Shown piece after piece: positions 5,487-61,596 of a DNA stretch of 64,000 bases. The notes under the pieces were generated by a model. That model saw only the letters and a program-made list of their open reading frames with translations, was not told the origin of the DNA and searched no databases. A program made the translations under genes and the position numbers. Source of the stretch: Clostridiales bacterium (GTDB taxonomy: Bacteria > Bacillota > Clostridia > Lachnospirales > Lachnospiraceae); the NCBI GenBank assembly GCA_029007785.1, contig JAQXIM010000137.1, positions 4,429 to 68,428 on the forward strand. The letters run 5' to 3'. The first letter of the stretch is position 1, and the number at the start of each line of letters is the position of its first letter.

Positions 5487-5750
5487 TAAAAAAGCCCTTA
5501 TCCCATACACGAATTGTGTTGGGACAAGAGCGATAACTCCTGCGGTGCCACCCAATTTGATGCAATGCATCCACTCAAGGCATTCTGACAAATGCCGCCT
5601 TTTGATAACGAAGAGGAACTCCGGCTCACCTACTTTATCTTCAGTTTGCTCTCCGGGACCCATTCCAATGGAGGCTGTCTGCATCGGTCACACCATTCCG
5701 ATACTCTCTGGGAGACAGGGATTCCTTGTACTTACATCCCATCAACGATT
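5487..5750 (-). promoter_or_regulatory. T-box leader (tRNA-sensing riboswitch), probable Trp specifier, controlling the TrpB2-like gene
   Basis: Minus-strand elements are a GA/K-turn (TGATGggatgtaAGTA), an AGAGAG bulge, a GGTGTGA distal loop, GAA-UGG-G (UGG at 5660-5662), and the T-box AAATTGGGTGGCACCGCA (5541-5558). A terminator hairpin (about 5494-5534) and a U-run (5488-5493) follow. Confidence 0.85.
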
Positions 5751-5756
5751 TCCTGC

Positions 5757-8699: not shown

Positions 8700-9761
8700 A
8701 TGGGTGAAAAAATAGAATTCTGCAGAGGCGGCGGCTGTACGGCGAAGCTGGGACCGGGAATTTTGAATCGGGTTCTGGAACGTTTGCCCAAAGGTCCAAG
8801 AGATGAAAATTTGCTGATAGGATATGACAGCAGGGATGATGCGGCAGTTTATCGGATTTCCGACGACACGGCAATCGTGCAGACCCTTGACTTTTTCCCT
8901 CCTATGGTGGATGATCCCTACACTTTTGGTCAGATTGCAGCGGCCAATGCCCTCAGTGACATCTTCGCCATGGGCGGAGACGTGAAAACGGCACTGAATA
9001 TTGTGTGCTTCCCGGAAAAAATGGATTTGAATATTCTTGGGGCAATCATGCAGGGAGGTGCAGAGAAGGTCATCGAAGCCGGAGGAACTCTTGCCGGAGG
9101 CCACTCCATTGCCGATCAGGATGTGAAATATGGATTATCTGTGACAGGAGTTGTAAATCCAAATCGAGCTCTTGCCAACAACAGCGGTCAACCGGGAGAC
9201 AAACTGATTCTTACAAAACCTTTGGGAGTAGGAATTATCTGTACAGCAAACCGGGTGGGAGAAGCATCGAAAGAGGCCATGGAGGCGGCTGTAAATTCCA
9301 TGACAAAGCTGAATCGGAGTGCTTCGGAAATCTTTCGCCGTCATCCGATCCACGCATGTACGGACGTAACCGGATTTGGTCTTCTTGGTCATCTTCATGA
9401 AATGCTGGACGGAAAACTGACAGCGGTGATTTATGCCAAAGAGGTTCCGGTCATTTCCCAGGCTTTTACTTATGCCGATGATTTTCTGCTGACGGCAGCA
9501 GGTCAGAGAAACCGAAACCATATGGAATCTTATGTGGATTTTCGGGAAATCTCTTTTGCCATGGAAGAAGTTCTCTTTGATCCCCAGACATCCGGCGGCC
9601 TTCTGGCAGCAGTTCCTCCGGAAGCGGCAGAAGAAATTCTGGCAGAACTGGGTGAGGCAGGATTGGAAGCCAAAGTAATTGGAGCACTGGGGGACGTCAA
9701 GGAGAATATCAAGTCCGGTGGGAAGGAAATTGTGGTAATGGAAAACCAACCACTGATATAA
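8700..9761 (+). CDS. selD: Selenide, water dikinase (selenophosphate synthetase), Cys-type
   Basis: N-terminal [14 protein letters not shown] (Cys, not Sec/UGA), DDAAVY, and PurM/AIR-synthase-like domains. GAGGAGG SD is upstream. An alternative start is at 8664. Confidence 0.9.
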
Positions 9762-9802
9762 AAAACAGAAAACGTAAGAAACGAAATAAAGGGGGACTAA
9801 TT

Positions 9803-10450
9803 ATGCTGAAAGTAAATGCCATGGGAGATGCCTGTCCCATTCCTGTTGTAAAGACGAAACAGGCAATCAGGGAACTGAACGGATCTGGTGAAGTAGAAGT
9901 ATTGGTGGACAATGAAATTGCAGTGCAGAATCTGACAAAGATGGCAAAGCAGAAAGGCTATGCCATTCGTTCCAGCAAACTGGAAGAAGGAAAATTCCAG
10001 GTAAATCTTGTGATTGCCGATGAAAATCCGGAAGTTTCCGGGAATGCCGGAAATGATGGACATGGGGAAGAGACAGAGAATTCGGAAGAGACCATCTGTA
10101 TTCCGGATCAGAGGAAACGCACGGTGGTGGTTATCTCCTCCAATCAGATGGGACACGGCGATGAAGTACTGGGAAAAATGCTGATGAAAGGCTTTATTTT
10201 CGCATTGACTCAGCAGGATGCGCTTCCCGGCACGATTCTCTTCTACAACGGAGGAGCCTTTCTGACCTGTGAAGAGTCAGCATCTCTGGAGGATCTTCGT
10301 TTGCTGGAATCCCAGGGAGTGGAAATTCTGACCTGCGGCACCTGCCTGAATCATTATGGATTGGCAGATAAACTTAAGATCGGCGGTGTCACCAATATGT
10401 ATGAAATTACAGAAAAGATGATGCAGGCAGAAAGCATCGTGAAGCCATGA
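9803..10450 (+). CDS. yedF: YedF-type selenium metabolism protein (TusA/SirA-like N-domain plus DsrE-like C-domain)
   Basis: CPxP motif GDACPIPVV in the N-domain. The C-domain reads VVVISSNQMGHGDEVLG...ILTCGTCLNHYGL. Confidence 0.8.
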   Translation: MLKVNAMGDACPIPVVKTKQAIRELNGSGEVEVLVDNEIAVQNLTKMAKQKGYAIRSSKLEEGKFQVNLVIADENPEVSGNAGNDGHGEETENSEETICIPDQRKRTVVVISSNQMGHGDEVLGKMLMKGFIFALTQQDALPGTILFYNGGAFLTCEESASLEDLRLLESQGVEILTCGTCLNHYGLADKLKIGGVTNMYEITEKMMQAESIVKP

Positions 10451-11586
10451 TTTATATGGATAATGCGGCCACATCCTGGCCGAAACCGATACAGGTGGAA
10501 GAACGTATGGTGGAAGCCCTTCGAACCTTCGGAAACGGAGGCCGGGGGGCTCATGGCTCTGCTTTGACAGCGGCCAGAATGATTTATGATACCAGAGAAA
10601 TGCTGGCAGAGCTTTTCGGAGCGAGTGATCCTTCTCGAATTGCCTTTACAGCCAATTCCACTGCTTCGCTGAACATGGCCATCCAGGGTCTTCTGGTACC
10701 GGGAGATCATGTCATTACAACAGAATGTGAACATAATTCTGTCTTAAGACCCTTATATCGCCTGGAAAAACAGGGGGTAGAATTATCCATTCTAAAGGCG
10801 GATAAAAACGGTATACTGCAGTACGAAAATCTGGAGAAACTTTACCGTCCCAATACCCGGGCTGTTGTGATCACTCATGCTTCAAATCTGACGGGAAATG
10901 TGACACAGCTTTCCAGAATATCCTCTTTTACCCAGCGTCATGGTCTTCTTCTGATTATGGACGCCTCTCAGACTGCCGGTGTTCTTCCCATCTATGTGGA
11001 AGAAATGGGAATCGATGTGCTCTGCTTTACCGGCCATAAAAGTCTGCGGGGACCCCAGGGGATTGGCGGAATTTGGGTGAGAGACGGTTTGGAAATCCGG
11101 CCTCTGTCTGTGGGAGGGAGCGGAATCAGGAGTTTTGATCGGACTCATCCCAACACCATGCCGGAAGCTTTGGAAGCCGGTACGCTGAACAGCCATGGCA
11201 TTGCCGGTTTATATGGTGCACTTCAGTATTTGAACGAAATGGGTATTCCTGTTATTTATGAAAAAGAAATGAAGCTGACCCGTCGGTTTGCCGAGGGAGT
11301 CGAAGCTTTGGATAATGTGAAGCTGTACGGATCCGGACTTCACGAAGAACAGATGCGGGTTCCCATTGTATCATTGAATATTGGGGATTATGATTCTGCC
11401 AGCGTGGGTCAATGGCTTTGGGAGGATTATGAAATTGCGGTTCGAACCGGTGCTCACTGTGCACCGCTGATGCATAAAGCCCTGGGAACAGAAAATCAGG
11501 GGGCCGTACGTTTCAGCTTTTCTCATTATAATACAGAAGAGGAAGTAGATACTGCTATTGAGGCGATTCGAAAATATGCCTTGTAA
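10447..11586 (+). CDS. Class-V aminotransferase, cysteine desulfurase / selenocysteine lyase-like
   Basis: MDNAATSWPKP start, PLP lysine region FTGHKSL, and active-site RTGAHCAP. An ATGA overlap with yedF indicates translational coupling. Confidence 0.85.
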   Translation: MIYMDNAATSWPKPIQVEERMVEALRTFGNGGRGAHGSALTAARMIYDTREMLAELFGASDPSRIAFTANSTASLNMAIQGLLVPGDHVITTECEHNSVLRPLYRLEKQGVELSILKADKNGILQYENLEKLYRPNTRAVVITHASNLTGNVTQLSRISSFTQRHGLLLIMDASQTAGVLPIYVEEMGIDVLCFTGHKSLRGPQGIGGIWVRDGLEIRPLSVGGSGIRSFDRTHPNTMPEALEAGTLNSHGIAGLYGALQYLNEMGIPVIYEKEMKLTRRFAEGVEALDNVKLYGSGLHEEQMRVPIVSLNIGDYDSASVGQWLWEDYEIAVRTGAHCAPLMHKALGTENQGAVRFSFSHYNTEEEVDTAIEAIRKYAL

Positions 11587-11714
11587 TCAGGTATGAGAGC
11601 TTAGAAATTCTGTCATAAATATCTGGTCAGAAAGGCATGGACAGAGAGTTATCATCAGGTATTTTGTCATGGAATGGAGCAAAAACCGGACAGATACAAA
11701 AGGGGATCGATCAA

Positions 11715-12125
11715 ATGAGTGAACTGACATATAAGGTAAGGCTTCGAATCTATAAGGACGATCTGGTTTTCGGTCCTGGAATTGCCAGACTGATGCAGGG
11801 AATCGAAGAGACGGGCTCCATGTCGGAGGCTTGCCGGAGTATGGGGATGGCCTACTCCAAAGGCTGGAAGATTATCAAGCGGGCCCAGCAGGAACTGGGA
11901 TATCCCCTGATTGAGGGAACCAGAGGCGGAGCCAACGGAGGAAAAATGATTCTCACTGCCCAGGGAAAGGATTTTCTGGATCATTACCTTTCCTTTGAGG
12001 AAGCGGTGGAAAAAGCGGCGCAGGATTTATTTCTAAAACACATGACCGGATGGGAAAATCCATGCATTCCTATGGATCGGTCTGCAGAAAATAAGAATGT
12101 GAGAAAAACGATGGACGAAGCCTGA
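11715..12125 (+). CDS. ModE N-terminal-like winged-helix regulator
   Basis: GSMSEACRSMGMAYSKGWKIIKRAQQELGYPLIEGTRGGANGGKMILT resembles the ModE/LysR-type HTH followed by a G-rich turn. The ORF could start earlier, at 11637. Confidence 0.7.
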   Translation: MSELTYKVRLRIYKDDLVFGPGIARLMQGIEETGSMSEACRSMGMAYSKGWKIIKRAQQELGYPLIEGTRGGANGGKMILTAQGKDFLDHYLSFEEAVEKAAQDLFLKHMTGWENPCIPMDRSAENKNVRKTMDEA

Positions 12126-12170
12126 CGCATAAAAATTGAAAGATGGAAGGAAGTAAATGAGAACGGGCAA

Positions 12171-12407
12171 ATGAGAGAAAAACGTGCGTATCATGTGATT
12201 ACATTTCAGACGACCACGGAAGCCATGGCCATGGAGAAATTCTGTGAGACGAATCATCTTTCCGGAAGGATGATTCCTGTTCCAAGGGAAATATCGGCAG
12301 GCTGCGGATTGGCCTGGAGAGTTTCTTCCGAAGAATTTCCGAAGTGGTTGAAGCATGTATCTGAAACTTCGCTTCGGTATGAAAAGGTTACGGAGTTAAT
12401 GATGTGA
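12171..12407 (+). CDS. DUF3343-like small protein (putative Se/S carrier)
   Basis: 78 aa. ITFQTTTEAMAMEK...RMIPVPREISAGCGLAW matches my recollection of the DUF3343 pattern with a single conserved Cys. Confidence 0.7.
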   Translation: MREKRAYHVITFQTTTEAMAMEKFCETNHLSGRMIPVPREISAGCGLAWRVSSEEFPKWLKHVSETSLRYEKVTELMM

Positions 12408-12452
12408 GAGAGAATCCAAAAGGAACAGCATTGAAAGAAGGAGAGAAGTGAT

Positions 12453-13277
12453 ATGGCAGATGAGGCTGTAATTCTTGTCAGGGGAGCGGGAGACATTGCC
12501 ACCGGGACGATTCATCGTCTATGGTCTGCCGGATTTCGGGTCATTGCCCTGGAAACAGAATTTCCGGCAGCGATTCGGCGTCAGGTCGCTTTTGGCGAAG
12601 CGATTTACGAAGGTGAGATAGTGGTAGAAGGTGTGAAAGCGGTTCGGATTTCCGCCTGGCAGGAAGCAGAGGCAGCTTGGAGCCAGGGAGCGGTTCCTGT
12701 GCTGGTGGATCCCCAGGGGGAATGCGTGAATCAGCTTCATCCCATGGCAGTAGTCGATGCCATTTTAGCCAAGAAGAATCTGGGAACCAACAAAGGTATG
12801 GCGGAATTGACCATTGCTCTGGGTCCCGGCTTTATTGCAGGAGAAGATGTGGATGTGGTCATTGAAACCATGCGGGGACACAATCTGGGACGAATTATCC
12901 GAAGCGGTTCCGCCCTGGCGAATACCGGTGTGCCCGGTGTAATTGGCGGGTATGGTGCGGAGCGTGTTATCCATGCTCCGGAAAAAGGGATTTGCAGAAA
13001 TGTCGCTCAGATCGGTGATTTTGTGACAGAAGGGGAAGTGATTGCCTGGATTGAGCAGGAAAAAGAACGGATTCCGGTAAACGCTTCCATTACGGGACTT
13101 TTGAGGGGGCTGATACGGGATGGATATCCTGTTGTAAAGGGCTTCAAAATTGCAGATATTGATCCAAGAAAAACGGAAGCGGCCAATTGTTTTACCATAT
13201 CCGATAAAGCAAGATGTATTGGAGGCAGTGTTCTGGAACTGGTCTGCGGTTATCAGGCATCTCATCAGAAAAAATGA
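12453..13277 (+). CDS. yqeB: YqeB-family selenium-dependent molybdenum hydroxylase maturation protein
   Basis: 274 aa. VRGAGDIATG Rossmann-like start, TIALGPGF, and GVPGVIGGYG..RVI.AP, with the context expected for the EF2563/YqeB family. Confidence 0.75.
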   Translation: MADEAVILVRGAGDIATGTIHRLWSAGFRVIALETEFPAAIRRQVAFGEAIYEGEIVVEGVKAVRISAWQEAEAAWSQGAVPVLVDPQGECVNQLHPMAVVDAILAKKNLGTNKGMAELTIALGPGFIAGEDVDVVIETMRGHNLGRIIRSGSALANTGVPGVIGGYGAERVIHAPEKGICRNVAQIGDFVTEGEVIAWIEQEKERIPVNASITGLLRGLIRDGYPVVKGFKIADIDPRKTEAANCFTISDKARCIGGSVLELVCGYQASHQKK

Positions 13278-13351
13278 TTTTCGATGGAAGATCATTGCTC
13301 GAAGTGTGACGAATGCAGCTGCCGTGAATCCATACATGGTCAGGGATGCAG

Positions 13352-13453
13352 GCAATAGGAAAGATGAGGAAGACAAGTATGAAAAAGTGAGAAGGAGATA
13401 CGCCAGCGATTTGTGCCGCAATAGGAAAGATGAGGAAGACAAGTATGAAAAAG
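13352..13453. repeat. 36-nt duplication (period 66 nt) of the SD plus start-codon region of the MoeA-like gene
   Basis: gcaataggaaagatgaggaagacaagtatgaaaaag occurs at 13352-13387 and identically at 13418-13453. Confidence 0.95.
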
Positions 13454-14470
13454 ATGAAAACAGAAGAAGCCGTGGGGCAGGTTCTCTGTCATGATATCAC
13501 TCAGATTATTCCGGGTGTAACGAAGGATGCTGTATTTCGAAAAGGCCACATCATTCAGGAAGAGGATATTCCTGTCCTTTTGAGTGTAGGAAAGGATTAC
13601 ATTTATATCTGGGAAAATGACGAAAATATGCTGCATGAAAATGATGCTGCCCGGATTCTTTACGAGATGTGCAGAAATGACAATATGTATCCTTCGGAAG
13701 TAAAGGAAGGAAAGATCGAAATCCTTGCAGAATGCGATGGTCTTTTGAAGGTGGATCGTCAAAAGCTTTTTCAGGTCAACAGTCTGGGAGAAATGATGAT
13801 TGCCTCCCGTCATGGAAATACGGTGGTGCGGAAAGGGGACAAGCTGGCAGGTACCAGAATTATTCCGTTGGTAATTCAGAAAGAAAAAATGGCAAAGGCG
13901 CAGAATCTTTGTCAGGATCATCCGATTCTGACCCTTCTTCCTTTCAAAAAGAAAAAAGCTGCCGTTATTACCACAGGAAATGAAGTGTATTATGGAAGAA
14001 TTCAGGACAGCTTTACACCGGTAATTCGCCAGAAGCTGGCAGAGTATGACACGGAAGTCATTCGCCATCGGATTTTAGATGACAATCCGGAAAAGATTAC
14101 GGCAGAATGTCTGGAATCCATCAGAGAAGGGGCTGACCTTGTGATCTGTACCGGAGGCATGAGTGTGGACCCGGATGATAAGACGCCTCTGGCCATAAAG
14201 AATACTGGTGCAAGGATTGTATCCTATGGTTCACCGGTGCTTCCCGGTGCCATGTTTCTTTTGTCTTATTATCAGCACCGAATTCCGATTCTTGGTTTGC
14301 CGGGCTGTGTTATGTATGCAAAACGTACCATTTTTGATCTGGTTCTGCCCAGAATTATGGCGGATGATCCCATCACTGCAGACGAACTGGCTTCCCTGGG
14401 AGAAGGCGGCTTATGTCTGTCCTGTCCGGAATGTACATTCCCCAACTGTGGTTTTGGGAAAGGTTGGTAA
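13445..14470 (+). CDS. Molybdopterin-binding MoeA-like protein (MoCF_biosynth domain, C-terminal Cys cluster)
   Basis: TGGMSVDPDD motif in a MogA/MoeA-type fold, and C-terminal CLSCPECTFPNC. The GAGGAAG SD favours ATG 13445; the ORF opens at 13430. Confidence 0.8.
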   Translation: MKKMKTEEAVGQVLCHDITQIIPGVTKDAVFRKGHIIQEEDIPVLLSVGKDYIYIWENDENMLHENDAARILYEMCRNDNMYPSEVKEGKIEILAECDGLLKVDRQKLFQVNSLGEMMIASRHGNTVVRKGDKLAGTRIIPLVIQKEKMAKAQNLCQDHPILTLLPFKKKKAAVITTGNEVYYGRIQDSFTPVIRQKLAEYDTEVIRHRILDDNPEKITAECLESIREGADLVICTGGMSVDPDDKTPLAIKNTGARIVSYGSPVLPGAMFLLSYYQHRIPILGLPGCVMYAKRTIFDLVLPRIMADDPITADELASLGEGGLCLSCPECTFPNCGFGKGW

Positions 14471-14512
14471 TGAAAAATTCCCTATTTCTTCAGTAAGCGG
14501 AGAGATGCCATT

Positions 14513-15502
14513 ATGAAAGATCAATACGGACGCGCGATTACGTATATGCGCATTTCGATCACAGATCGCTGTAATCTACACTGTCAGTACTGTATGCCTG
14601 GAGAACCAAAACAGATTCCCAGAGAAGAAATTCTTTCCTATGAGGAAATATGTCAGACGGCAGAGGCAGCGGTGAATCTGGGAATCACACATTTTCGTAT
14701 CACCGGCGGAGAACCCCTCGTTCGAAAGGATTGTTTTCGTTTGATCCGGATGCTTCATCAGATTAACGGAGTGGAGCGGGTCAGTATGACAACGAATGGT
14801 GTTCTTCTCTTTTCGTTTATGAATGAACTGGCATCGGCAGGTCTGGATGATGTAAATGTCAGTCTGGATACCCTGAATCGGGGAGAATTTTTACATCTCA
14901 CCGGAAAGGACAGCCTTTCCTCCGTACTGGAAGGAATTGAGGCTGCTGTGGAGAGCGGAATTCCGGTCAAGCTCAATGCCGTCAATCGCCGGGGAATGGA
15001 TTGGAGAAGTCTGGTGTCTTATGCGGAGAGCCGGAAGATTCCCCTGCGTTTTATTGAAATGATGCCCATTGGTCATGGGAAAAATCATATGGGCAGTTCC
15101 AACGAGGAACTGCTGAAACAAATCGAGGAGATTTATGGTCCGGCCAGGCCGGTGGAAAACAGTTCCGATCCTGGAAATTTGATAATGGAAGAACAGGGAA
15201 GAGGACCGGCCCGGTATTATCGTTTTCAGAATTTGAATACGAAAATCGGTTTTATCAGTGCGATTCATCACCGATTTTGTGAAAGCTGCAATCGTGTACG
15301 CTTGTCTTCCACGGGATATCTGAAGGCCTGCCTTTGCTATCAGCAGGGAGCAGATCTTCGGCCGATTCTGAGGGATCCGGCTCAATCTGACGATTTGGTG
15401 AGGGTGATGAGAGAGGTGATTTACCGGAAACCCAGAGAACATGATTTTGACCATATGAAAAACATAACAGAAAAAAAATCGATGAACCGGATTGGCGGAT
15501 GA
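14513..15502 (+). CDS. moaA: GTP 3',8-cyclase (radical SAM, Moco biosynthesis)
   Basis: CNLHCQYC radical-SAM motif, ITGGEPL, and C-terminal CESCNRVRLSSTG auxiliary cluster region. Confidence 0.95.
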   Translation: MKDQYGRAITYMRISITDRCNLHCQYCMPGEPKQIPREEILSYEEICQTAEAAVNLGITHFRITGGEPLVRKDCFRLIRMLHQINGVERVSMTTNGVLLFSFMNELASAGLDDVNVSLDTLNRGEFLHLTGKDSLSSVLEGIEAAVESGIPVKLNAVNRRGMDWRSLVSYAESRKIPLRFIEMMPIGHGKNHMGSSNEELLKQIEEIYGPARPVENSSDPGNLIMEEQGRGPARYYRFQNLNTKIGFISAIHHRFCESCNRVRLSSTGYLKACLCYQQGADLRPILRDPAQSDDLVRVMREVIYRKPREHDFDHMKNITEKKSMNRIGG

Positions 15503-15604
15503 AGACATGGGGATTACGAATGTTTTTTTGATTTTGAGAGTGGGAAGCAGGAACGGCGTTGGATTCATTTGTCAGGAAATTTATGAGATGCAGTAAAGAC
15601 AAAA

Positions 15605-15670
15605 GGATGGGATCAGGATGGAATCAGGACAGGATCAGGACAGGATCAGGATGGGATCAGGAGATAAGCA
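15605..15670. repeat. Six tandem 11-nt units GGAyrGrATCA (GGA-rich), with the last unit supplying the SD of the MOSC gene
   Basis: ggatgggatca ggatggaatca ggacaggatca ggacaggatca ggatgggatca ggagataagca, followed by tt ATG at 15673. Confidence 0.95.
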
Positions 15671-15672
15671 TT

Positions 15673-16113
15673 ATGGGAACGATAAAGGCAATTTGTATCA
15701 GTGAGAAGCGCGGAACGCCCAAATATAAAGTGAACCGTGCAGAATTTGTAAAGGATTGGGGGATTCGCGGGGATGCCCACGCAGGAAACTGGCATCGGCA
15801 GGTCAGCTTTCTTTCTTTTGAAAAGATCGAAGCCTTCCGTGCAAAAGGGGCCCAGGTGGATTTTGGTGCCTTTGGAGAAAATGTGATTGCCGATGGGTTG
15901 GATTTCAAAGAACTGCCGGTGGGAACACGTCTCCGCTGTGGTGATGTGGAATTCGTGATTACACAAATCGGAAAAGAATGTCACAGTCACTGTCAGATTT
16001 TCCGGAGAATGGGAGAGTGTATTATGCCCCATGAAGGTGTATTTGCTGTGGTGGAAAAGGGCGGCTGGATCCAGGTGGGAGATCAGCTGGAACAGCTCCC
16101 CACGATTCGGTAG
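15673..16113 (+). CDS. MOSC domain-containing protein
   Basis: 146 aa. GIRGDAHAG.WHRQVS, GENV...G, and a conserved late Cys region (IGKECHSHC). Confidence 0.8.
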   Translation: MGTIKAICISEKRGTPKYKVNRAEFVKDWGIRGDAHAGNWHRQVSFLSFEKIEAFRAKGAQVDFGAFGENVIADGLDFKELPVGTRLRCGDVEFVITQIGKECHSHCQIFRRMGECIMPHEGVFAVVEKGGWIQVGDQLEQLPTIR

Positions 16114-16125
16114 GAGGAAAAAAGA

Positions 16126-17109
16126 ATGGAATCATTGTTTTCTGTACTGCAGGCCCGGCAGAATGAGGGGAAAGACAGTATGCTGGTAATGATCGTGGAT
16201 TCCGGCGGCTCTTCGCCCAGAAAAGCCGGTGCCTATATGGTTGTAGGAGAGGAAGGAATTCTTCTGGGAACCATTGGCGGCGGTAATCTGGAATATCAGG
16301 CCATGATGCGGGCACGGAATCTGCTGGGGGAGAAAAAGAACGACCAGATGAAGTACGAGCTTTCCAATCATGGAGCAGCGGAGCTGGGCATGGTCTGCGG
16401 TGGCTGGGCCAGGGTTCTTTTTTGCAGAATCAGTGGGGAATCGGAGGAAGACCGGGAACTGGTTTGCCGGGGAATGGAAGCTGCCGCCAGGCAGGAACCC
16501 TGCTGGCTTCTCCTTCCTTTTGGTGAGGGAAGGGTGAAGCTTCTGGAAATGCCGGAAGCTGATTTGGGACAAAGATCTTTTATTTTAGAAGGCCAGAATT
16601 ATTTTGGACAGCCTTTTTATTATGAAGGAAGGGTCTATATCTTCGGGGGCGGTCATGTGGCCGTGGAAACGGTGGCTCTGCTGAGTCATCTTGGTTTCCG
16701 GTGTGTTGTTGCCGATGATCGGGAAGAATTTGCAGATCCTCAGCGATTTCCGGAAGCAGAGGATACGGTATTGGTGGATTTTTCAAAACTGGAAGATTTC
16801 TTCCATTTATCCGGTGCCGATGCAGCCGTCATCATGACCCGGGGGCATCTTTGTGATACGGACGCGGAACGATTTGCCCTGAGCAGTCCGGTTGGTTATA
16901 TTGGCGTCATGGGAAGTCGGAAAAAGGCAGAATTTGTAAGAAAAAAACTGGAAGCGGAAGGATTTTCCAGGGATCAGCTGGATCGGGTGATCACGCCCAT
17001 TGGTATTGCGATTCAGGCAGAAACGCCGGCGGAAATCGCAGTCAGCATCGCAGGACAACTCATAGCCTATCGAAACGGCAGACGAAAAAAAATCCGGCCG
17101 GAAAAATGA
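16126..17109 (+). CDS. xdhC: XdhC/CoxI-family molybdenum hydroxylase accessory (cofactor insertion) protein
   Basis: N-domain SGGSSPRKAGAYMVV...GTIGGG.LE and a Rossmann domain IFGGGHVA. Confidence 0.85.
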   Translation: MESLFSVLQARQNEGKDSMLVMIVDSGGSSPRKAGAYMVVGEEGILLGTIGGGNLEYQAMMRARNLLGEKKNDQMKYELSNHGAAELGMVCGGWARVLFCRISGESEEDRELVCRGMEAAARQEPCWLLLPFGEGRVKLLEMPEADLGQRSFILEGQNYFGQPFYYEGRVYIFGGGHVAVETVALLSHLGFRCVVADDREEFADPQRFPEAEDTVLVDFSKLEDFFHLSGADAAVIMTRGHLCDTDAERFALSSPVGYIGVMGSRKKAEFVRKKLEAEGFSRDQLDRVITPIGIAIQAETPAEIAVSIAGQLIAYRNGRRKKIRPEK

Positions 17110-17162
17110 GCGGATTTCGACAGGAGGAACTCTCAATACAAAAGACAAACAAAAAAGGCAGC

Positions 17163-18005
17163 ATGAAAAAGAGAATGGCACTGCTTGTTTGCATGGTGAT
17201 GGGAATGACCATGATGATCGGATGCGGAAACAGTTCTGAAAGCGAGGAAGAAGTTGCCATTACATTATTTGCGGCAAAAAGTCTGAATACGGTAATGGAG
17301 GAGCTGATTCAGCTTTATAACGAAACCAATCCCAACGTAAAGATTGTAGGAAGCTACGACAGTTCCGGAACCCTGATGACTCAGATTGAAGAAGGGGCTG
17401 CCTGTGATGTTTTCTTCTCAGCTGCTCAGAAACAGATGGATCAGTTGGATCTGGAAGATGGGCTGGTGGAAGAAGGAACCAGATACAACGTGGTAAACAA
17501 TCAGGTGTGTGTGGTTACCTGGAAGGGAAGCGGCACAGAGGTAACCGGTCTTTCCGATATGGGTAAGGCAGACAGTATCGCTTTGGCAGACGGATCGGTT
17601 CCTGTAGGAAAATATACCAGACAGGCCATGGTAAATGCCGGTATGCTGGAAGCGGCGGACGATGTTTCTACGATTCCGACAGAAACGGTATCTCAGGCTC
17701 TCGGTGGTGTGGAGATCAATGAATGTGCCAATGTCGGTGCCGTTGCTGCAGCCGTTGCTGAAGGTTCCAATGAAGTGGGAACCGTGTACTATTCCGATAC
17801 ATATGGTTTGGAGGACAGACTGGAGATTCTGGAAATGGTATCTTATGATTTGACCGGAAATGTAATCTATCCGGTGGCTCAGATTAAAAACGGGGAAGCC
17901 AGCAAAGAAGAGGCGGCAGCAGCTAAGGATTTTGTAGAGTTTTTGATTTCAGAGGAAGCCAAATTGGTTTTTCAGAATTACTGCTTTGACACGGATGTGG
18001 AATAA
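17163..18005 (+). CDS. modA: Molybdate ABC transporter substrate-binding lipoprotein
   Basis: Lipobox MMIGCG, then ITLFAAKSL, SYDSSGTL..QI..GA..DVFFSA. Confidence 0.85.
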   Translation: MKKRMALLVCMVMGMTMMIGCGNSSESEEEVAITLFAAKSLNTVMEELIQLYNETNPNVKIVGSYDSSGTLMTQIEEGAACDVFFSAAQKQMDQLDLEDGLVEEGTRYNVVNNQVCVVTWKGSGTEVTGLSDMGKADSIALADGSVPVGKYTRQAMVNAGMLEAADDVSTIPTETVSQALGGVEINECANVGAVAAAVAEGSNEVGTVYYSDTYGLEDRLEILEMVSYDLTGNVIYPVAQIKNGEASKEEAAAAKDFVEFLISEEAKLVFQNYCFDTDVE

Positions 18006-18064
18006 AAAATGTGCGCAGAGAAAAAATCGATTCTTCCATACAAAGAAGAAAGAAGGAGAAATGA

Positions 18065-18769
18065 ATGGATCAGATGATGGTTTATTTGCAGGAACTGGAC
18101 TGGAGCCCTCTGTGGATTTCACTGAAAACCGGTGTGGCTGCCACCATTCTCTCCTTCTTTCTGGGAATCTGGGCGGCAAGAAAAACCATGAAAGCAAGTC
18201 CAAGGGTAAAATCACTGATGGATGGGATTCTGACGCTTCCCATGGTTCTGCCGCCCACCGTTGCCGGCTTTTTTCTCCTTCTTCTTTTCAGTCTGAGGCG
18301 GCCTGTGGGGGCTTATCTGTATCAGGAATGGAATATTAAAGTGGTTCAGACCTGGCTGGGATGTATTCTGGCAGCCACAGTGATTTCGTTTCCTTTGATG
18401 TATCGGAATGCCCGGGCAGCCTTTGAACAGGTGGATGTGAATCTGATTTATGCAGCCAGAACCCTGGGAATGTCGGAGTTCGCCGTGTTCTGGAAGATTG
18501 CTGTTCCTGCTGCCGGCCCCGGCATTGCTTCCGGTACGGTGCTTACCTTTGCCAGAGCTTTGGGCGAGTATGGTGCCACCTCCATGCTGGCGGGAAATAT
18601 TCCCGGGAAAACAGGGACCATTTCCCAGAAAATTGCCATGGTTATTCAGGATGGGAATTATGCCGCGGCAGGATTCTGGACGGCGGTGATTCTGGTGATT
18701 GCTTTCTTCATCCTGTTTTTGCTGAACCGGATTCTCTTCCGAAGTAACAGAAATAACCGGAGGTGGTGA
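18065..18769 (+). CDS. modB: Molybdate ABC transporter permease
   Basis: Multi-TM protein. EAA-like loop ARTLGMSEF..FWKI..P and GEYGATSMLAGNIPGKT, typical of ModB. Confidence 0.85.
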   Translation: MDQMMVYLQELDWSPLWISLKTGVAATILSFFLGIWAARKTMKASPRVKSLMDGILTLPMVLPPTVAGFFLLLLFSLRRPVGAYLYQEWNIKVVQTWLGCILAATVISFPLMYRNARAAFEQVDVNLIYAARTLGMSEFAVFWKIAVPAAGPGIASGTVLTFARALGEYGATSMLAGNIPGKTGTISQKIAMVIQDGNYAAAGFWTAVILVIAFFILFLLNRILFRSNRNNRRW

Positions 18770-18770
18770 G

Positions 18771-19850
18771 ATGGCAGGACTTCAGGTGGATATCAAAAAG
18801 AAATACGGCAGTTTTCAGCTGGATGTGGCCTTTCAGCTGGACCAGGGAACCCTCGGGATTCTGGGGGCCTCCGGATGCGGAAAGAGTCTGACCCTGAAAT
18901 GTATTGCCGGAATTGAGACGCCGGACCAGGGCAGGATTATTCTCCACGATCGTGTATTGTTTGATTCCAACAGAAAGATAAATCTTCCTCCCCAGAAACG
19001 AAAAGTGGGATATATGTTCCAGGATTATGCCCTTTTTCCTCATATGACGGTTGAAAAAAATATCATGGCAGGGATGGGAAGAAAACCGGATCTGTCACTG
19101 GTAAAAAAATACATCCGGCAGTTTCATCTGGAAGGCCTGGAAAAACATGAGCCTTCCTGGCTGTCCGGCGGGCAGAAACAGCGAGTGGCCATGGCCCGGA
19201 TGATTGCTGCCCAGCCGGAGCTTCTGCTTTTGGATGAACCCTTTTCTGCCATGGACAGTTATCTTCGATGGGAACTGGAAGGACAGATGCGTGAATTTCT
19301 GGAGCAGGCAGAAAAGCCGGCCCTTCTGGTTTCCCATAATCGGGACGAAGCGTACCGACTTTGCCAGACCGTGGGATGCATCAATCAGGGAAAGATGGAG
19401 ATCATTGAGCCTGTACGGGAATTTTTTGGGAATCCCAAGACAAGAACGTCAGCCCTTCTTTCCGGCTGCAAAAATATTTCTTCTGCCCGGATTCTGGATG
19501 AACACCATTTGCTGGCAGAGGATTGGGGGATAATTTTCACCATTCCCTGTGTTCCGGCTCATACAAAAGCAGTGGGAATTCGTGCCCATACCTTTATGGC
19601 TTCCGACAAAAGAGACAGGGACAATACGTTCCCGATTGCAGAGTCCCGTATTCTGGAAGATATGTTTGAGTGGAACATTTCTTTCCGGCTCTCAGAGAAC
19701 AGCAGCTGGATGCAATGGAAAATTCCAAAGAAGGAATGGCAGGAGGAACCGGTGGAGGTACCGGAATACGTGACAGTGGACGTGAAGAATATTATGTTTC
19801 TGGCAGAAGACGGTGAGTCCATGAAAAAAGATGGTATCATTGCTGGATAG
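18771..19850 (+). CDS. modC: Molybdate ABC transporter ATP-binding protein
   Basis: Walker A GASGCGKS, signature LSGGQKQRV, Walker B LLLDEP, and a C-terminal extension. Confidence 0.85.
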   Translation: MAGLQVDIKKKYGSFQLDVAFQLDQGTLGILGASGCGKSLTLKCIAGIETPDQGRIILHDRVLFDSNRKINLPPQKRKVGYMFQDYALFPHMTVEKNIMAGMGRKPDLSLVKKYIRQFHLEGLEKHEPSWLSGGQKQRVAMARMIAAQPELLLLDEPFSAMDSYLRWELEGQMREFLEQAEKPALLVSHNRDEAYRLCQTVGCINQGKMEIIEPVREFFGNPKTRTSALLSGCKNISSARILDEHHLLAEDWGIIFTIPCVPAHTKAVGIRAHTFMASDKRDRDNTFPIAESRILEDMFEWNISFRLSENSSWMQWKIPKKEWQEEPVEVPEYVTVDVKNIMFLAEDGESMKKDGIIAG

Positions 19851-19858
19851 ATCAGCAT

Positions 19859-20030
19859 CAGATTTGATGGAGAGTAAAGATGCCGGGAAAAAATATAAGG
19901 ATGGTACAATGATTGGACAAAAACGTGCCGGATTCGATGGAGAATAGGTCTGCCGGGATAAAGTATAAGGATGATACAATAATGAGGCAGAACCGTGCCG
20001 GATTCGATGGAGAGTGAGAATACTGTGGCA
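19859..20030. repeat. 70-nt tandem repeat, about 2.4 copies (roughly 77 percent identity between copies 1 and 2). The third copy runs into the yqeC 5' region.
   Basis: Copies start at 19859, 19929 and 19999 (c[a/g]gatt[t/c]gatggaga...tgccggga...tataaggatg.tacaat...cgtgc). Confidence 0.9.
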
Positions 20031-20072
20031 AAAATATATGGAAAAAATTCCGAGAGTAAAAATGGAACATGG

Positions 20073-20786
20073 ATGGAAATGCCCCCTGACAGGGCGTTTC
20101 CCTTTTTACAGGAAAAAAATCATGTGATTTCCCTGACGGGCGGAGGAGGAAAGACGACACTGATATACTGGCTGGCAGAATATTATGCAAAGCAAGGATA
20201 TCGAACCTTAATTTCTACGACAACCCATATGCAGCAGCCCAGGAAGGATGTGTGGGTACGGGATTGGAAGGATCTGGAGGAACACTGGAAACAGGAAGGG
20301 ATTGCTGTGATGGGAGAAGCCTGTGAGAATGGAAAGATTCGTCAGCCGGAATATACAGTTTTGGAGAGAGGTATCGAAATGGCAGATGTTGTTCTTCTGG
20401 AAGCAGACGGAGCAAAAGGGCTGCCCTGCAAGGTGCCTTCTTCCCGGGAACCGGTGATTTTGCCCCAATCGGATCTTGTGATTGGCGTCATGGGTCTGAG
20501 TGCTCTGGGGAAAACGCTGGAAGAAACGTGTTTCCGTCTGGAAGAAACCATGGCTTTCTTAGGAAAAGAAAAAGACCAGCGATTGACAGAGGAAGATGCA
20601 GCACGAATTCTTTCTTCGGAAAAAGGAACAAGAAAAAGTGTTGGAAACAGAGCATATTATGTCGTTCTGAATCAGTGCGACGATCCGGAGCGTTTCCGGA
20701 TGGGAATGGGAATTCTTCGCCGACTGGAAGACCGGGGGATAGCCGGAGGTGTGATGACCTGCCTGAAGGACGAGGCAGAATGGTGA
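20073..20786 (+). CDS. yqeC: YqeC-family selenium cofactor biosynthesis protein (P-loop)
   Basis: VISLTGGGGKTT P-loop about 20 aa from M at 20073, then LLEADGAKG and VVLNQCD. In-frame alternative starts are at 20007 (ATG) and 19995 (GTG), both inside the repeat. Confidence 0.75.
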   Translation: MEMPPDRAFPFLQEKNHVISLTGGGGKTTLIYWLAEYYAKQGYRTLISTTTHMQQPRKDVWVRDWKDLEEHWKQEGIAVMGEACENGKIRQPEYTVLERGIEMADVVLLEADGAKGLPCKVPSSREPVILPQSDLVIGVMGLSALGKTLEETCFRLEETMAFLGKEKDQRLTEEDAARILSSEKGTRKSVGNRAYYVVLNQCDDPERFRMGMGILRRLEDRGIAGGVMTCLKDEAEW

Positions 20787-20816
20787 AGAGGAAGGGTTTT
20801 CTGGAAAAGTATATCG

Positions 20817-20912
20817 GGATAAAAGGAAACAGAAAGCGAAGGAAATAAAAAGCGACGGAAAACAAGATAGACGGAAAACAAGATAGATGGAAACAGAAAG
20901 GGATAGCGAAAA
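20817..20912. repeat. Purine-rich tract with roughly 16-nt periodicity upstream of moaC (two perfect units plus degenerate units)
   Basis: gacggaaaacaagata occurs at 20854-20869 and 20870-20885. Flanking units are GAnGGAAA-like. ATG is at 20915. Confidence 0.85.
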
Positions 20913-20914
20913 CG

Positions 20915-21394
20915 ATGGGGAAACTAACACATTTTGACGAAAACGGAGCGGCTGTCATGGTGGATATTCATGAAAAAGCAGATACCAACCGGATCGCGGT
21001 GGCTGCAGGAAAAATTCATGTCAGCCGGGAAGTATTTGAGGCGATTACAGAAGGTCAGGTGAAAAAAGGAGACGTTCTGGGAGTTGCCCGAATTGCAGGT
21101 ATTATGGGAGCAAAAAAAAATGCCGATCTGATTCCTCTGTGTCATCCCATCGGGATGACCAGCTGTGAGATCTCTTTCCAATTATCGGAGGAGGAATTGT
21201 CCATTACAGCGATTTGCAGAACCGCCTGCACCGGAAAAACGGGAGTGGAAATGGAGGCACTGACCGGAGTCAGTGTTGCCCTGCTGACAATTTACGATAT
21301 GTGCAAGGCCATGGATCGATCTATGCGGATTACCGATATTCATCTGGTGGAAAAGGACGGAGGAAAAAGCGGCCATTATCAAAGTCCGATTTGA
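20915..21394 (+). CDS. moaC: Cyclic pyranopterin monophosphate synthase
   Basis: GDVLGVARIAGIMGAKK..DLIPLCHP and EMEALTGVSVALLTIYDM are classic MoaC motifs. Confidence 0.95.
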   Translation: MGKLTHFDENGAAVMVDIHEKADTNRIAVAAGKIHVSREVFEAITEGQVKKGDVLGVARIAGIMGAKKNADLIPLCHPIGMTSCEISFQLSEEELSITAICRTACTGKTGVEMEALTGVSVALLTIYDMCKAMDRSMRITDIHLVEKDGGKSGHYQSPI

Positions 21395-21504
21395 CGGATG
21401 AAGATACGTAAGAAGGAATGGATCAGATATTTATTTTAAACCGTTTTGGTGAAAGAATTCTTCTTCGCGGAAGAAGTTAACAGGAAAATCCAAGGGGGAA
21501 TTTT

Positions 21505-21996
21505 ATGTATAAGACAGGTATTATTACATTGAGTGATAAAGGAGCAAAAGGTGAAAGAGTGGATCTCAGCGGTCAGAAGATAAAGGAACTTCTTCCTGCG
21601 GATAAGTATGAAGTGGTTTCTTATGTTCTTTTGCCTGATGCGCTGGATCAAATAGAAGCGGAACTGATTCGTCTGGCAGATGACTGCGGATGTGATTTGA
21701 TTCTTACCACGGGAGGAACAGGATTTTCACCGAGAGATGTGACACCGGAAGCTACTCTTCATGTAGCGGATCGGCAGGCACCGGGAATTGCAGAGGCAAT
21801 TCGTGGATACAGCATGACCATTACCAAAAGAGCCATGCTGAGCCGGGGCGTCAGCGTAATTCGCGGAAACACTTTGATTATCAATCTTCCGGGAAGTCCA
21901 AAGGCAGTAGAGGAAAGCCTCACATATATTCTGGATACACTGGAACACGGACTGGATATTCTTTCGGGACATGGTGGAGAATGCGCCAGACGTTAA
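21505..21996 (+). CDS. mogA: MogA/MoaB-type molybdopterin adenylyltransferase domain protein
   Basis: ITLSDKG, LILTTGGTGFSPRDVTPEAT, and PGSPKA. Confidence 0.9.
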   Translation: MYKTGIITLSDKGAKGERVDLSGQKIKELLPADKYEVVSYVLLPDALDQIEAELIRLADDCGCDLILTTGGTGFSPRDVTPEATLHVADRQAPGIAEAIRGYSMTITKRAMLSRGVSVIRGNTLIINLPGSPKAVEESLTYILDTLEHGLDILSGHGGECARR

Positions 21997-23315: not shown

Positions 23316-23564
23316 TTCAGTGACAGTGTGGACGGAGCCAACACTAGTGCTGTGGTCTATATGATGGTCGAGATGGCAAAGAACTATGAGCTGAATATAT
23401 TCAGATATCTAGAGTATTTGTTGGAGCAGTGGCCTGACAGTAGTTGGAGAGATGAAGAACTGGTCGAGTTAGTTCCCTGGAGTGAGAAATTCCAATTTAT
23501 CAAAAACGGAAGGGAAATTAAAGTAAATTACTCCAATATCGTATTGTTCGGGGTCATTTTATAA
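23298..23564 (+). pseudogene. IS66-family transposase C-terminal remnant (truncated, with an in-frame TGA)
   Basis: The frame reads KRKN*LFSDSVDGANTSAVVYMMVEMAKNYELNIFRYLEYLL...LVPWS, compared with the IS66 motif GRKNWLFS..GA.ASA..YS..ETAK.N.LN...YL..LL...LLPW. TGA at 23310 sits where Trp is expected. No N-terminal transposase part is present. Confidence 0.7.
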
Positions 23565-24613: not shown

Positions 24614-25054
24614 ATGTTGATGCCTAGTTTATTTGGAGAAAGCTTATTGGATGACTTTTGGAACATGGAAATGCCGACAGTCAGAAGTTACACTTCTGCA
24701 AAGAACCCCTACGATCTGATGACCACCGATGTGAAAGAGACGGAAAACGGATATGAGATCCATATGAATTTGCCGGGAGTCAAGAAAGAAGATGTGAAGG
24801 CAGAATTGAAAGATGGTTATTTGACCATTCAGGCTTCCACCGCTTCCAATCAGGAAACGAAAGACAATGATGGAAAATATATTCGCCGAGAACGTTACAG
24901 CGGTTCCTGCAGCAGAAGTTTCTTTGTAGGAAAAGAAGTAACTCAGGAAGAGATCAAAGCCAGGTTTGAGGATGGTGTCCTGAAATTGGATATTCCGAAA
25001 AAAGAAGCAAAGAAAGTAGAAGAACAGAAGAAGTACATCACTATAGAAGGTTAA
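24614..25054 (+). CDS. Hsp20/alpha-crystallin small heat-shock protein
   Basis: The alpha-crystallin domain reads DVKETENGYEIHMNLPGVKKEDVKAELKDGYLTI...RFEDGVLKLDIPK. Confidence 0.9.
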   Translation: MLMPSLFGESLLDDFWNMEMPTVRSYTSAKNPYDLMTTDVKETENGYEIHMNLPGVKKEDVKAELKDGYLTIQASTASNQETKDNDGKYIRRERYSGSCSRSFFVGKEVTQEEIKARFEDGVLKLDIPKKEAKKVEEQKKYITIEG

Positions 25055-25156
25055 GTATTGTGATAGGAGAAGAAAGGGGCCGGTTTTACCGGCCCTCTTT
25101 CTTATCGAAAAAAACAGAATGGAAGAGATGGATTTATCGAGGCAGGAGGTGATAGT

Positions 25157-26206
25157 ATGAAAGGAAAAAGAGATTATTATGAAATTCTGGGGGTCACAAA
25201 AGACGCAGATGCTGCAGTAATCAAGCGTGCTTACCGAAAGTTGGCGAAAAAATATCACCCTGACAGTAATAAAGGAAACCAAAAGGCGGAAGAAGTCTTT
25301 AAAGAAATCACAGAGGCTTATGGAGTCCTCGGCGATGAAAAAAAGAGAAAGCTGTATGACCAGTATGGTTTTGCAGCCTTTGATGAGACCGGAGCGGGGG
25401 CTGGATATCAGGATAACCAGGGCTTTGGCGGCGGTTATGGAAATGGTAACTTCTATCGGAGGGAAGGACCGAATGGTTATCAGGAATTCCATTTCGAAGG
25501 AAACGGTGGGGATATGGATGATATCCTGAAGAACTTTTTTGGCGGTTCCTTCCATGGCAGTGATTTTGGATCTTTCCATGGCTTTCGGAATTCCGGTTCT
25601 TCCCAGAGAGGAGGAAATGGTTCTTTTGCACGAAAGGGTATGGATTTGAATGCGGATATGGAGGTTACCTTTGATGAGGCGGCCTTCGGAGGTACGAGAA
25701 AGATTCATTTGCAGGAAAGTGATGGGACGGAAAGAGCGTATGAAGTGCATATACCGGCAGGAATTGCTTCCGGTCAGGTAATTCGCATGAAAGGAAAAGG
25801 AAATCCGGGATCCGGAGGCGGTGAAAATGGGGATTTGATGCTTAAGGTGACGGTAAAGGATAAGCCCGGTTTCCACCGAGAGGGTCAGGATGTCTATACG
25901 ACAGTACGCGTTCCCTTCGCAACGGCCGTTCTGGGCGGTGAGGTCACCATCGGCACCATTTATGGAGATGTGCGCTGCAATGTGAAAGCAGGAACTCAGT
26001 CCGGCAGCAAAATACGTTTGAGAGGAAAAGGTATCGCTTCCATGGATCATCCTCAGACCCGGGGTGATCAGTTTGTTACGGTTCAAATTGAAGTGCCCAG
26101 AAATCTGGGAGAAGAGGAGAAACGGAAGCTGCGGGAATTTGATGCAGCCTGTGAGCGGAATGGTCATACTTCCAGCCGGGGCGGAGCCCGGGCTGCACGA
26201 ATGTAA
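25157..26206 (+). CDS. DnaJ-class co-chaperone lacking the zinc-finger domain (CbpA-like, type II)
   Basis: J domain DYYEILGV...KKYHPD, a G/F-rich linker, and C-terminal substrate-binding domains. No CxxCxGxG repeats are present. Confidence 0.85.
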
Positions 26207-26326
26207 AAAAGAAAATACACCGCGCACCTGGTGGTATCCTTGATATGGCATAAATTTTCTTTTATAACAAACTTTTAAAATTTTTTCATATATTGGCTGG
26301 CCGACAATACCTCTTGCATAACATGG

Positions 26327-26356
26327 AACCGCTGTCTGAAAAGGCAGCGGTTTTTT
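26327..26356 (+). terminator. Intrinsic terminator 120 nt downstream of the DnaJ-like gene
   Basis: aaccgctg ... cagcggtt stem followed by tttttt (26351-26356). Confidence 0.75.
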
Positions 26357-26556
26357 CAAGAAGAAACTTCGTCCCTATTGCATAAAATTCTCCGGGAGGA
26401 TACGCATACCGCTCCAAAAGAAGTTTTTCTGTAAGCAGCCACGCGGCAGTGCGAGACTTCCGCGAGTCGAACTCTTTGTTCAAATTGCTTTCCTCTAGCA
26501 AATGTAGTAGACTGAAAATAAAGATGGATTCATAGATGACCAGGGGGTGAACAGTT

Positions 26557-61302: not shown

Positions 61303-61596
61303 ATGGAGCTGATTAGTATCCAGCAATGGATGCGAAATGGATATGGGAGGGATCGGCTGCTGGATTTGAGACCGATCGATTGCTATAAACGAGGTCATTT
61401 GGCCGGTGCCGAGTCTGCGCCCTGGGAGGAAAAAGGGCGGTGGATGATGTCACTGGACCGGAAAAAGAAAATTGTCTTGATCTGTTACAGTGGGGCAACT
61501 GCCATAAAGGCGGCCTATGAGCTGGAAGCCATGGGATTTCATACAGCGGTTATTGCCGGCGGATATCATCGGCTAGGGTATCCTGATTGTCCGTAA
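61303..61596 (+). CDS. Single-domain rhodanese-like protein
   Basis: LLDLRP...Y..GHL.GA and the active-site loop CYSGATA. Confidence 0.75.
   Translation: MELISIQQWMRNGYGRDRLLDLRPIDCYKRGHLAGAESAPWEEKGRWMMSLDRKKKIVLICYSGATAIKAAYELEAMGFHTAVIAGGYHRLGYPDCP

Follow-up and report, generated by a model that had tools for sequence, protein, structure and literature searches.

In gut bacteria, molybdenum hydroxylases drive the anaerobic breakdown of purines and urate, a process of relevance to hyperuricaemia and gout, and the route by which the labile selenium ligand reaches these enzymes is still unsolved. The reference locus for an SDMH (selenium-dependent molybdenum hydroxylase) system with orphan selD is EF2563–EF2582 of E. 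faecalis V583, which contains selD (EF2567), a yedF-like gene (EF2566), sclA (EF2568), yqeB (EF2563), yqeC (EF2564) and a xanthine dehydrogenase (XDH) gene (EF2570), and the families TIGR03309 (YqeB), TIGR03172 (YqeC), TIGR03527 (YedF) and the TIGR01977 lyase have been described as companions of orphan selD and SDMH (Haft and Self, PMC2276186). E. faecalis EF2568 has been characterised as the selenocysteine lyase SclA (bioRxiv 10.1101/2020.02.07.939272), and YedF and DUF3343 have been put forward as candidates for selenium trafficking (Lin et al., PMC5322559). In C. difficile a yqeB deletion resembles selD mutants on xanthine and urate, by a mechanism that the authors call unknown (PMC11448449), and in C. 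sporogenes the activities of XDH and 2,8-dioxopurine dehydrogenase (DOPDH) need SelD; every strain with the urate cluster carries YqeB, YqeC and SelD (bioRxiv 10.1101/2025.04.24.650524). The link of these genes to a selenium trait is a known idea, 18 years old and in the literature since 2008. Here we describe a 64,000-nucleotide stretch of DNA (the window) from an uncultured metagenome-assembled genome (MAG) of a Clostridiales bacterium (GCA_029007785.1, contig JAQXIM010000137.1, positions 4,429–68,428), in which an array of selenium and molybdenum-cofactor (Moco) genes occupies positions 8700–21996. We read this array, with a probability of roughly 0.8, as an accessory SDMH maturation module of the third selenium trait; our confidence in the roles of the individual proteins is much lower.

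The open reading frame (ORF) map of the window places 16 genes in a row on the forward strand, in the order selD, yedF, csd, modE-N, DUF3343, yqeB, moeA-like, moaA, MOSC, xdhC, modA, modB, modC, yqeC, moaC and mogA. The spacing of the NCBI proteins MDD6213334, 336, 339, 341, 343, 344, 346 and 347 corresponds to exactly 16 consecutive annotated genes with an expected numbering of 332–347, and coordinates, count and strand agree with an earlier reading of this DNA (the original prediction), which had also spoken of short gaps or overlaps throughout. The latter is true of two 4-nt overlaps (yedF/csd and xdhC/modA), the 1-nt gap between modB and modC and most of the remaining gaps, which measure 12–60 nt, but not of five gaps of 110–222 nt, i.e., yqeB/MoeA-like, moaA/MOSC, modC/yqeC, yqeC/moaC and moaC/mogA. 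Selenium and Moco genes are interleaved: yqeB separates DUF3343 from the MoeA-like gene, and yqeC separates modC from moaC.

Profile scans with Pfam (gathering score) and NCBIfam (curated cut-offs; scores are given as bits versus cut-off) recovered every family that the original prediction had named. The marker families, i.e., SelD, YedF, the EF2568-type desulfurase, DUF3343, YqeB and YqeC, all scored above their curated, trusted cut-offs, and the defining members of an SDMH system, selD, YqeB (TIGR03309) and YqeC (TIGR03172/PF19842), are thus all present in the array. Pfam matches above gathering score were also obtained for XdhC_C, XdhC_CoxI, MOSC and MoCF_biosynth (in both the MoeA-like protein and MogA/MoaB). 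The top matches of ModC and the ModE-N domain (Table 1) and of XdhC (TIGR02964, 149 versus 161.6; NF045664, 271 versus 350) stay below the curated cut-offs. In the NCBI annotation, YqeC of the source MAG already bears the name of a selenium cofactor biosynthesis protein, and so does YqeB of related MAGs. The tie of selD, yqeB and yqeC to molybdenum hydroxylases with labile selenium, on which the original prediction drew, comes from comparative genomics (PMC2276186, PMC5322559) and now has genetic support (PMC11448449, bioRxiv 10.1101/2025.04.24.650524); its statement that the reactions of YqeB, YqeC, YedF and DUF3343 are unassigned is still valid (PMC11448449, PMC5322559), and no more recent study of the YqeB mechanism turned up in a literature search. 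The EF2568-type enzyme is not a wholly uncharacterised one, the E. faecalis member being SclA.

The array is more than a chance assembly: other species have these families again around their yqeB, and in matching order. An alignment search with YqeB of the species-representative genomes (GTDB) gave 524 confirmed loci, of which the best 80 were kept and searched with the 16 window proteins by tblastn, taking 10 kb around yqeB as the neighbourhood; the highest YqeB identity to the window protein among the retrieved loci is 69%. Within this distance, yqeC is found at 68 of the 80 loci, selD at 54, the desulfurase gene (csd) at 51, yedF and DUF3343 at 47 each and xdhC at 43, and each of the moa, mod, MOSC and MoeA-like families at 22–28. 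At least 13 of the 16 array families occur at 10 of the 80 loci, and all 16 at four (L044, L046, L050 and L052). L052 is the cultured Oliverpabstia intestinalis BSM-380-WT-5A, and a further locus, L002, belongs to the isolate Lachnospiraceae bacterium MGYG-HGUT-00136; these two and the MAGs L044, L046, L050 and L021, all gut Clostridia, have the same 15–16 families as the window, with proteins 38–81% identical and, from selD to modC, an unchanged succession of genes; by the ORF-based count no hydroxylase is encoded within 10 kb at any of them. Of the 80 related species sampled, no fewer than 10 have near-identical arrays, and the original prediction overstates the uniqueness of the locus. Its proposal of a compact experimental model is not borne out either: the locus is a poor one because its source is an uncultured MAG, and the cultured L052 and the isolate L002 carry the same array.

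In the relatives the genes follow the order yqeC-moaC-mogA-selD-yedF-csd-DUF3343-(modE-N)-yqeB-moeA-like-moaA-MOSC-xdhC-modABC. The block yqeC-moaC-mogA thus precedes selD in the relatives, whereas it follows modC in the window, and the window represents a cyclic permutation; in L050 and L052 yqeC and moaC are in addition inverted, unlike in the window. A 70-nt tandem repeat (Table 1) sits exactly at the permutation junction, and its repeat cores are found nowhere else in the window. The modC-to-yqeC junction is real, since it is reproduced in an independent Logan contig (DRR025072, L082) that matches positions 19194–21819 with 95% identity along 2,627 bp. Four of the five large gaps contain short repeats, tandem or direct: besides the junction repeat, a direct repeat of about 37 nt at 13352–13454 (yqeB/MoeA-like) copies the start of the MoeA-like gene, the segment 15604–15662 (moaA/MOSC), upstream of the probable MOSC start, holds an 11-nt unit repeated 5.4 times, and two 16-nt repeats lie at 20823–20893 between yqeC and moaC. 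Just downstream of the cluster, the segment 22000–24500 is of low GC content (35.5% versus about 45–49%) and holds two ORFs without family match and a 78-aa remnant of the C-terminus of an IS66-type transposase (23328–23564); segment and remnant may be the trace of a rearrangement or insertion.

Clustering of the remaining ORFs at the 80 loci returned, as the commonest further neighbours of yqeB, a xanthine/uracil permease (33) and the large subunit of a molybdenum hydroxylase (26), after which come the hydroxylase FAD subunit at 21 loci, a transferase resembling MocA at 19 and the 2Fe-2S subunit at 15. These genes tie YqeB neighbourhoods independently to purine-type molybdenum hydroxylases.

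Table 1 Genes of the array at 8700–21996 and the repeat at the permutation junction, with profile scores in bits (score vs cut-off where two values are given)
Feature	Coordinates	Strand	Evidence
selD, selenide water dikinase, Cys type	8700..9761	+	TIGR00476 398 vs 125
yedF, TusA-like + DsrE-like selenium metabolism protein	9803..10450	+	TIGR03527 215 vs 110; PF01206 TusA
csd, class V pyridoxal phosphate (PLP) enzyme, EF2568/SclA family (cysteine desulfurase or selenocysteine lyase)	10447..11586	+	TIGR01977 434 vs 377
modE-N, ModE N-terminal-like winged-helix regulator, without Mop/TOBE domains	11637..12125	+	PF00126 HTH_1 32 vs 26.6; TIGR00637 64 vs 98.5
DUF3343, putative Se/S carrier (Se_S_carrier)	12171..12407	+	PF11823 86 vs 25; MDD6213336
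yqeB, marker of SDMH system	12453..13277	+	TIGR03309 365 vs 220, full-length match 7-264
moeA-like, truncated 'molybdopterin-binding protein', 346 aa	13430..14470	+	PF00994 (MoCF_biosynth) at residues 178-309 only
moaA, GTP 3',8-cyclase	14513..15502	+	TIGR02666 337 vs 284
MOSC, stand-alone MOSC-domain protein	15559..16113	+	PF03473 50 vs 22.7
xdhC, XdhC-family Moco chaperone / maturation factor	16126..17109	+	PF13478 139.5; PF02625 60.8
modA, molybdate-binding protein	17106..18005	+	TIGR01256 111 vs 62.5
modB, molybdate ABC permease	18065..18769	+	TIGR02141 198 vs 182.6
modC-like ABC ATPase	18771..19850	+	PF00005; top NCBIfam TIGR02142 199 vs 285 (below)
70-nt tandem repeat, 2.2 copies, 81% matches, modC-to-yqeC gap	19861..20015		Tandem Repeats Finder (TRF) score 205
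yqeC, SIMIBI-class P-loop NTPase, selenium cofactor trait marker	20073..20786	+	TIGR03172 218 vs 73; PF19842 145
moaC, cyclic pyranopterin monophosphate synthase	20915..21394	+	TIGR00581 198 vs 141.5; NF006870 226 vs 162
mogA/moaB-family molybdopterin adenylyltransferase	21505..21996	+	PF00994 112; TIGR00177 101 vs 85; NF006932 142 vs 158 (below)

The AlphaFold2 model of YqeB (predicted local distance difference test, pLDDT, 83.5) comprises an N-terminal Rossmann-like domain that bears an invariant RGGGD-ATG loop, a barrel-sandwich domain and C-terminal helices, on which the two cysteines that are invariant in the YqeB family alignment, Cys246 and Cys255, are located. The barrel-sandwich domain (approximately residues 172–237) resembles biotin carboxyl carrier proteins, with template modelling (TM) scores of 0.77–0.88 (target-normalised) and root-mean-square deviations of 1.2–2.1 Å. 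This domain alone matched well; a fold search of the PDB with the whole chain gave no convincing match (TM about 0.3), and a sequence search of the PDB returned nothing significant. Attachment of biotin or lipoyl was rejected, given that family members do not conserve the lysine that this protein has at the biotinyl position, and a swinging-arm cofactor is therefore unlikely. Relatedness of YqeB to XdhC was likewise considered and discarded; a profile comparison with the window XdhC was not significant (probability 1.6%), and the aligned portion was limited to a 29-column β-α-β glycine-rich start. Among the homologues, P0002 (ENA metagenome protein, 437 aa) has about 165 residues duplicated internally; it was rejected as a YqeB fusion and is probably a recent internal duplication or an assembly artefact.

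YqeC has the Walker A motif GGGGKTT, and its AlphaFold2 model (pLDDT 94) matches the folds of MipZ/MinD, SRP54/FtsY, MeaB, HypB and ArsA with TM scores of 0.4–0.49; a PDB sequence search found nothing significant. The modelled fold would fit a nucleotide-gated chaperone for cofactor delivery, cf. MeaB and HypB. The annotated protein of 220 aa begins at a GTG equivalent to position 20124, and the ATG at 20073 gives 237 aa; homologues measure 230–260 aa, and an FPFL motif that hardly varies among them is located upstream of the GTG, from which we judge that the NCBI start is probably too late. A terminator-like hairpin at 20075–20101 was rejected as a terminator because the conserved N-terminal part of the yqeC coding sequence encloses it. 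Predicted promoters and terminators are no more numerous than expected from shuffled sequence, and they are therefore uninformative on operon structure. Between 8300 and 22300 no Rfam family was matched even at E ≤ 1, the Moco riboswitch RF01055, sought upstream of the moa and mod genes, included; the riboswitch was not matched at gathering score across the whole window either.

For the selenium relay genes, the longest selD ORF extends from 8664, and the likely start is the ATG at 8700, which is preceded by the ribosome-binding site AGGAGG; SelD is of the Cys type, as had been predicted, because of its GGGCTAK motif. The YedF translation contains the motifs CPIP and CGTC, and its sole match among PDB sequences is to a TusA-like domain. 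The class V enzyme has GHK with the PLP lysine and GAHCAP with the catalytic cysteine. DUF3343 has a single conserved cysteine, within SAGCG, and no significant match in a PDB sequence search.

Several of the molybdenum proteins depart from their canonical counterparts. The ModE-N-like protein, the true start of which is probably near 11715, does not have the ModE architecture of a winged helix followed by a C-terminal di-Mop domain: the protein, of at most 162 aa, has just the N-terminal domain, weakly matched, and no Mop/TOBE match was found. The MOSC protein is matched by the profile from residue 39, so that its start is probably near 15673, and its match to NF011069, a model of a MoaC/MOSC fusion, is to the MOSC half. 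The MoeA-like protein (NCBI start corresponding to 13445) has neither MoeA_N nor MoeA_C, scores far below the cut-offs of all MoeA equivalog models and aligns to residues 130–317 only of E. coli MoeA. It lacks the four-domain architecture of MoeA and, in place of domain IV, has a four-cysteine tail (GG-x-C-x2-C-x2-C-x4-C-x-FG, i.e., CxxCxxCx4C, at 14405–14470) that is kept in 22 of 22 relatives, and this invariance points to a site for a metal or Fe-S. Across Clostridia the family is 72–80% identical; it is annotated only as 'molybdopterin-binding protein' and is without a curated equivalog model.

On the reading as an SDMH maturation module, the array would make selenium-bearing Moco and deliver it to XDH-family hydroxylases encoded elsewhere in the genome. 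By homology, ModABC imports molybdate, probably under control of the ModE-N-like regulator, MoaA and MoaC form cyclic pyranopterin monophosphate, MogA/MoaB adenylates molybdopterin, and SelD produces selenophosphate. The EF2568/SclA-type lyase may take selenium from selenocysteine as an enzyme-bound perselenide, and DUF3343, with its one conserved cysteine, and YedF, with its CPxP and CGxC motifs, may pass it to SelD. The non-canonical MoeA-like protein is a candidate for molybdenum insertion and XdhC for holding the finished Moco, on which MOSC, YqeB and YqeC would use selenophosphate to replace Mo=S by a terminal Mo=Se, in parallel with the sulfuration carried out by NifS-like enzymes with MOSC and by NifS4 with XdhC; the cofactor would then be inserted into the apo-hydroxylase. 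Molybdopterin synthase, MoeB and a cytidylyltransferase would have to come from other loci.

Several observations weigh against this reading. Family profiles were run on every window ORF of at least 100 aa and on small intergenic ORFs; Pfam found no XDH-family molybdenum hydroxylase among the ORFs of at least 100 aa, tblastn with the hydroxylase subunits, MocA and xanthine permease of related loci gave no match in the 64 kb, and the client hydroxylase is assumed, not seen. The profile scans also found no MoaD/MoaE, MoeB, MocA/MobA-type transferase or canonical MoeA in the window. Those of the 80 loci that have at least 12 core families (ORF-based count) all lack a hydroxylase, MocA and a purine permease in the 10-kb neighbourhood of yqeB. 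The five gaps of 110–222 nt leave open that the array comprises several transcription units. A yqeC deletion in C. difficile has no phenotype (PMC11448449), and DUF3343 also occurs in organisms without SelD (PMC5322559). Moreover, the roles proposed for YqeB, YqeC, MOSC, YedF and DUF3343 are what we infer. The claim of the original prediction that everything lies in one array cannot be upheld: with hydroxylase, MoaD/MoaE, MoeB, MocA and canonical MoeA absent from the window, we are dealing with an accessory module and not with a complete supply chain. In having no hydroxylase near the array, the window resembles the related loci of at least 12 families.

A stronger version of the SDMH module reading, which we offer tentatively and hold to be rather doubtful as it stands, takes the hydroxylase-free array to be a self-contained, trans-acting source of seleno-Moco, in which Moco would receive its selenium while bound to XdhC, ahead of insertion and not on the assembled enzyme, from a complex of YqeB, YqeC, MOSC and the four-cysteine MoeA-like protein, the CxxCxxCx4C tail of which might be a site for a metal or an Fe-S cluster. 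If so, one array would serve several client hydroxylases encoded elsewhere, and MOSC and the MoeA-like protein would be hitherto overlooked core parts of the selenium cofactor pathway. About 16 accessory genes travel together without a client enzyme in several gut Clostridia, cultured strains included, and this recurrent array offers a defined cassette for heterologous reconstitution; the under-studied candidates for selenium insertion beyond YqeB and YqeC are the MOSC protein, XdhC and the four-cysteine MoeA-like protein.

The best surviving rival to the SDMH module, which we nevertheless regard as improbable, is that unrelated operons adjoin here, namely a general Moco and molybdate locus together with a sulfur relay (csd, YedF, DUF3343 and MOSC) that would supply sulfur to the molybdopterin dithiolene or to an Mo=S ligand installed by XdhC, with SelD, YqeB and YqeC as mere neighbours. 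In E. coli, Moco synthesis receives sulfur from TusA with IscS, and NifS-like enzymes together with MOSC or XdhC carry out Moco sulfuration, both of which count for a sulfur relay. The large gaps could part the transcription units, the desulfurase scores 363 versus 525 with the SclA-specific model NF040779 and thus falls under its cut-off, and DUF3343 has no selenium-specific subfamily, in keeping with its presence in SelD-less genomes (PMC5322559). What speaks for the selenium module instead is the interleaving of selenium markers and Moco genes, an arrangement that is conserved across species. Furthermore, selD lies directly 5' of yedF and csd, with 41 nt between selD and yedF and an overlap of 4 nt between yedF and csd, and the two-domain YedF (TIGR03527) is nearly confined to selD-positive genomes (PMC2276186, PMC5322559).

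Far less probable is that SelD chiefly serves selenocysteine or 2-selenouridine synthesis and that its adjacency to yqeB is incidental, even though many organisms combine several selenium traits (PMC5029168, PMC5322559). Profile scans found no SelA, SelB or SelU in the 64-kb window and ARAGORN no tRNA of any kind, hence no tRNA-Sec there. The frequency of selD near yqeB (54 of the 80 loci) argues against coincidence, as does the finding that selD is close to TIGR03309 in orphan-selD genomes and distant in genomes with other selenium traits (PMC2276186); other traits, if present, would in any case leave the YqeB/YqeC link intact. The weakest rival, that YqeB and YqeC are accessory to a molybdoenzyme of selenate or selenite reduction and detoxification and not to a selenium-containing enzyme, was raised by Haft and Self, as the E. 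coli neighbourhood has a putative selenate reductase, and dismissed by them on phylogenetic-profile grounds (PMC2276186), and it is scarcely credible now that later genetics have connected purine catabolism with both SelD and YqeB (PMC11448449, bioRxiv 10.1101/2025.04.24.650524) and that the recurrent neighbours are xanthine permease and XDH-type subunits.

Elsewhere in the window, a T-box leader (RF00230, 97.4 bits versus 93) on the reverse strand at 5517–5754 lies upstream of the ORF 4027–5409 (reverse strand), which encodes a 460-aa PLP enzyme of the PALP family and is adjoined by a PucR-family regulator (2599–3771, reverse strand). The ORFs 24644–26359 (reverse strand, 571 aa) and 26557–28953 (forward strand, 798 aa) have no Pfam or PHROGs match, and the former has no NCBIfam match either. 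A stand-alone rhodanese-domain protein of 97 aa (61303–61596, forward strand) is encoded beside an RlmL-like methyltransferase; it was considered as SelU and rejected, being too short and without the P-loop part.

Viewed against the known systems, the array can be compared with Moco sulfuration, with the purine genes of C. difficile and with the E. faecalis SDMH locus. In eukaryotic Moco sulfurase, a NifS-like domain is joined in one protein to a C-terminal domain that contains MOSC, and in Rhodobacter capsulatus NifS4 acts with XdhC in Moco sulfuration. The window has the same three parts as separate proteins, i.e., a class V PLP enzyme, MOSC and XdhC, and adds to them SelD, YedF, DUF3343, YqeB and YqeC, which, judged by gene content, points to selenium rather than sulfur as the probable terminal ligand.

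C. difficile has the same yqeB and yqeC families, and its selD and yqeB are genetically required for the use of xanthine and urate; there, however, selD, yqeB and yqeC are dispersed, with yqeC near xdhA1/xdhB1 and mocA and yqeB amid pyrimidine genes, whereas all three lie in one array in the window (PMC11448449). The V583 locus and the window have in common the clustering of selD, a TIGR03527 YedF, a TIGR01977 enzyme, a TIGR03309 YqeB and a TIGR03172 YqeC. They differ in that the V583 locus holds xanthine dehydrogenase and purine-catabolic genes, neither of which is present in the 64 kb analysed here, whereas in the window modABC, moaA, moaC, mogA, MOSC and the MoeA-like gene are interleaved with the selenium genes. 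The locus thus brings no new kind of system; on the reading preferred here it is an ordinary example of the known SDMH maturation system, of a known kind and not unique.

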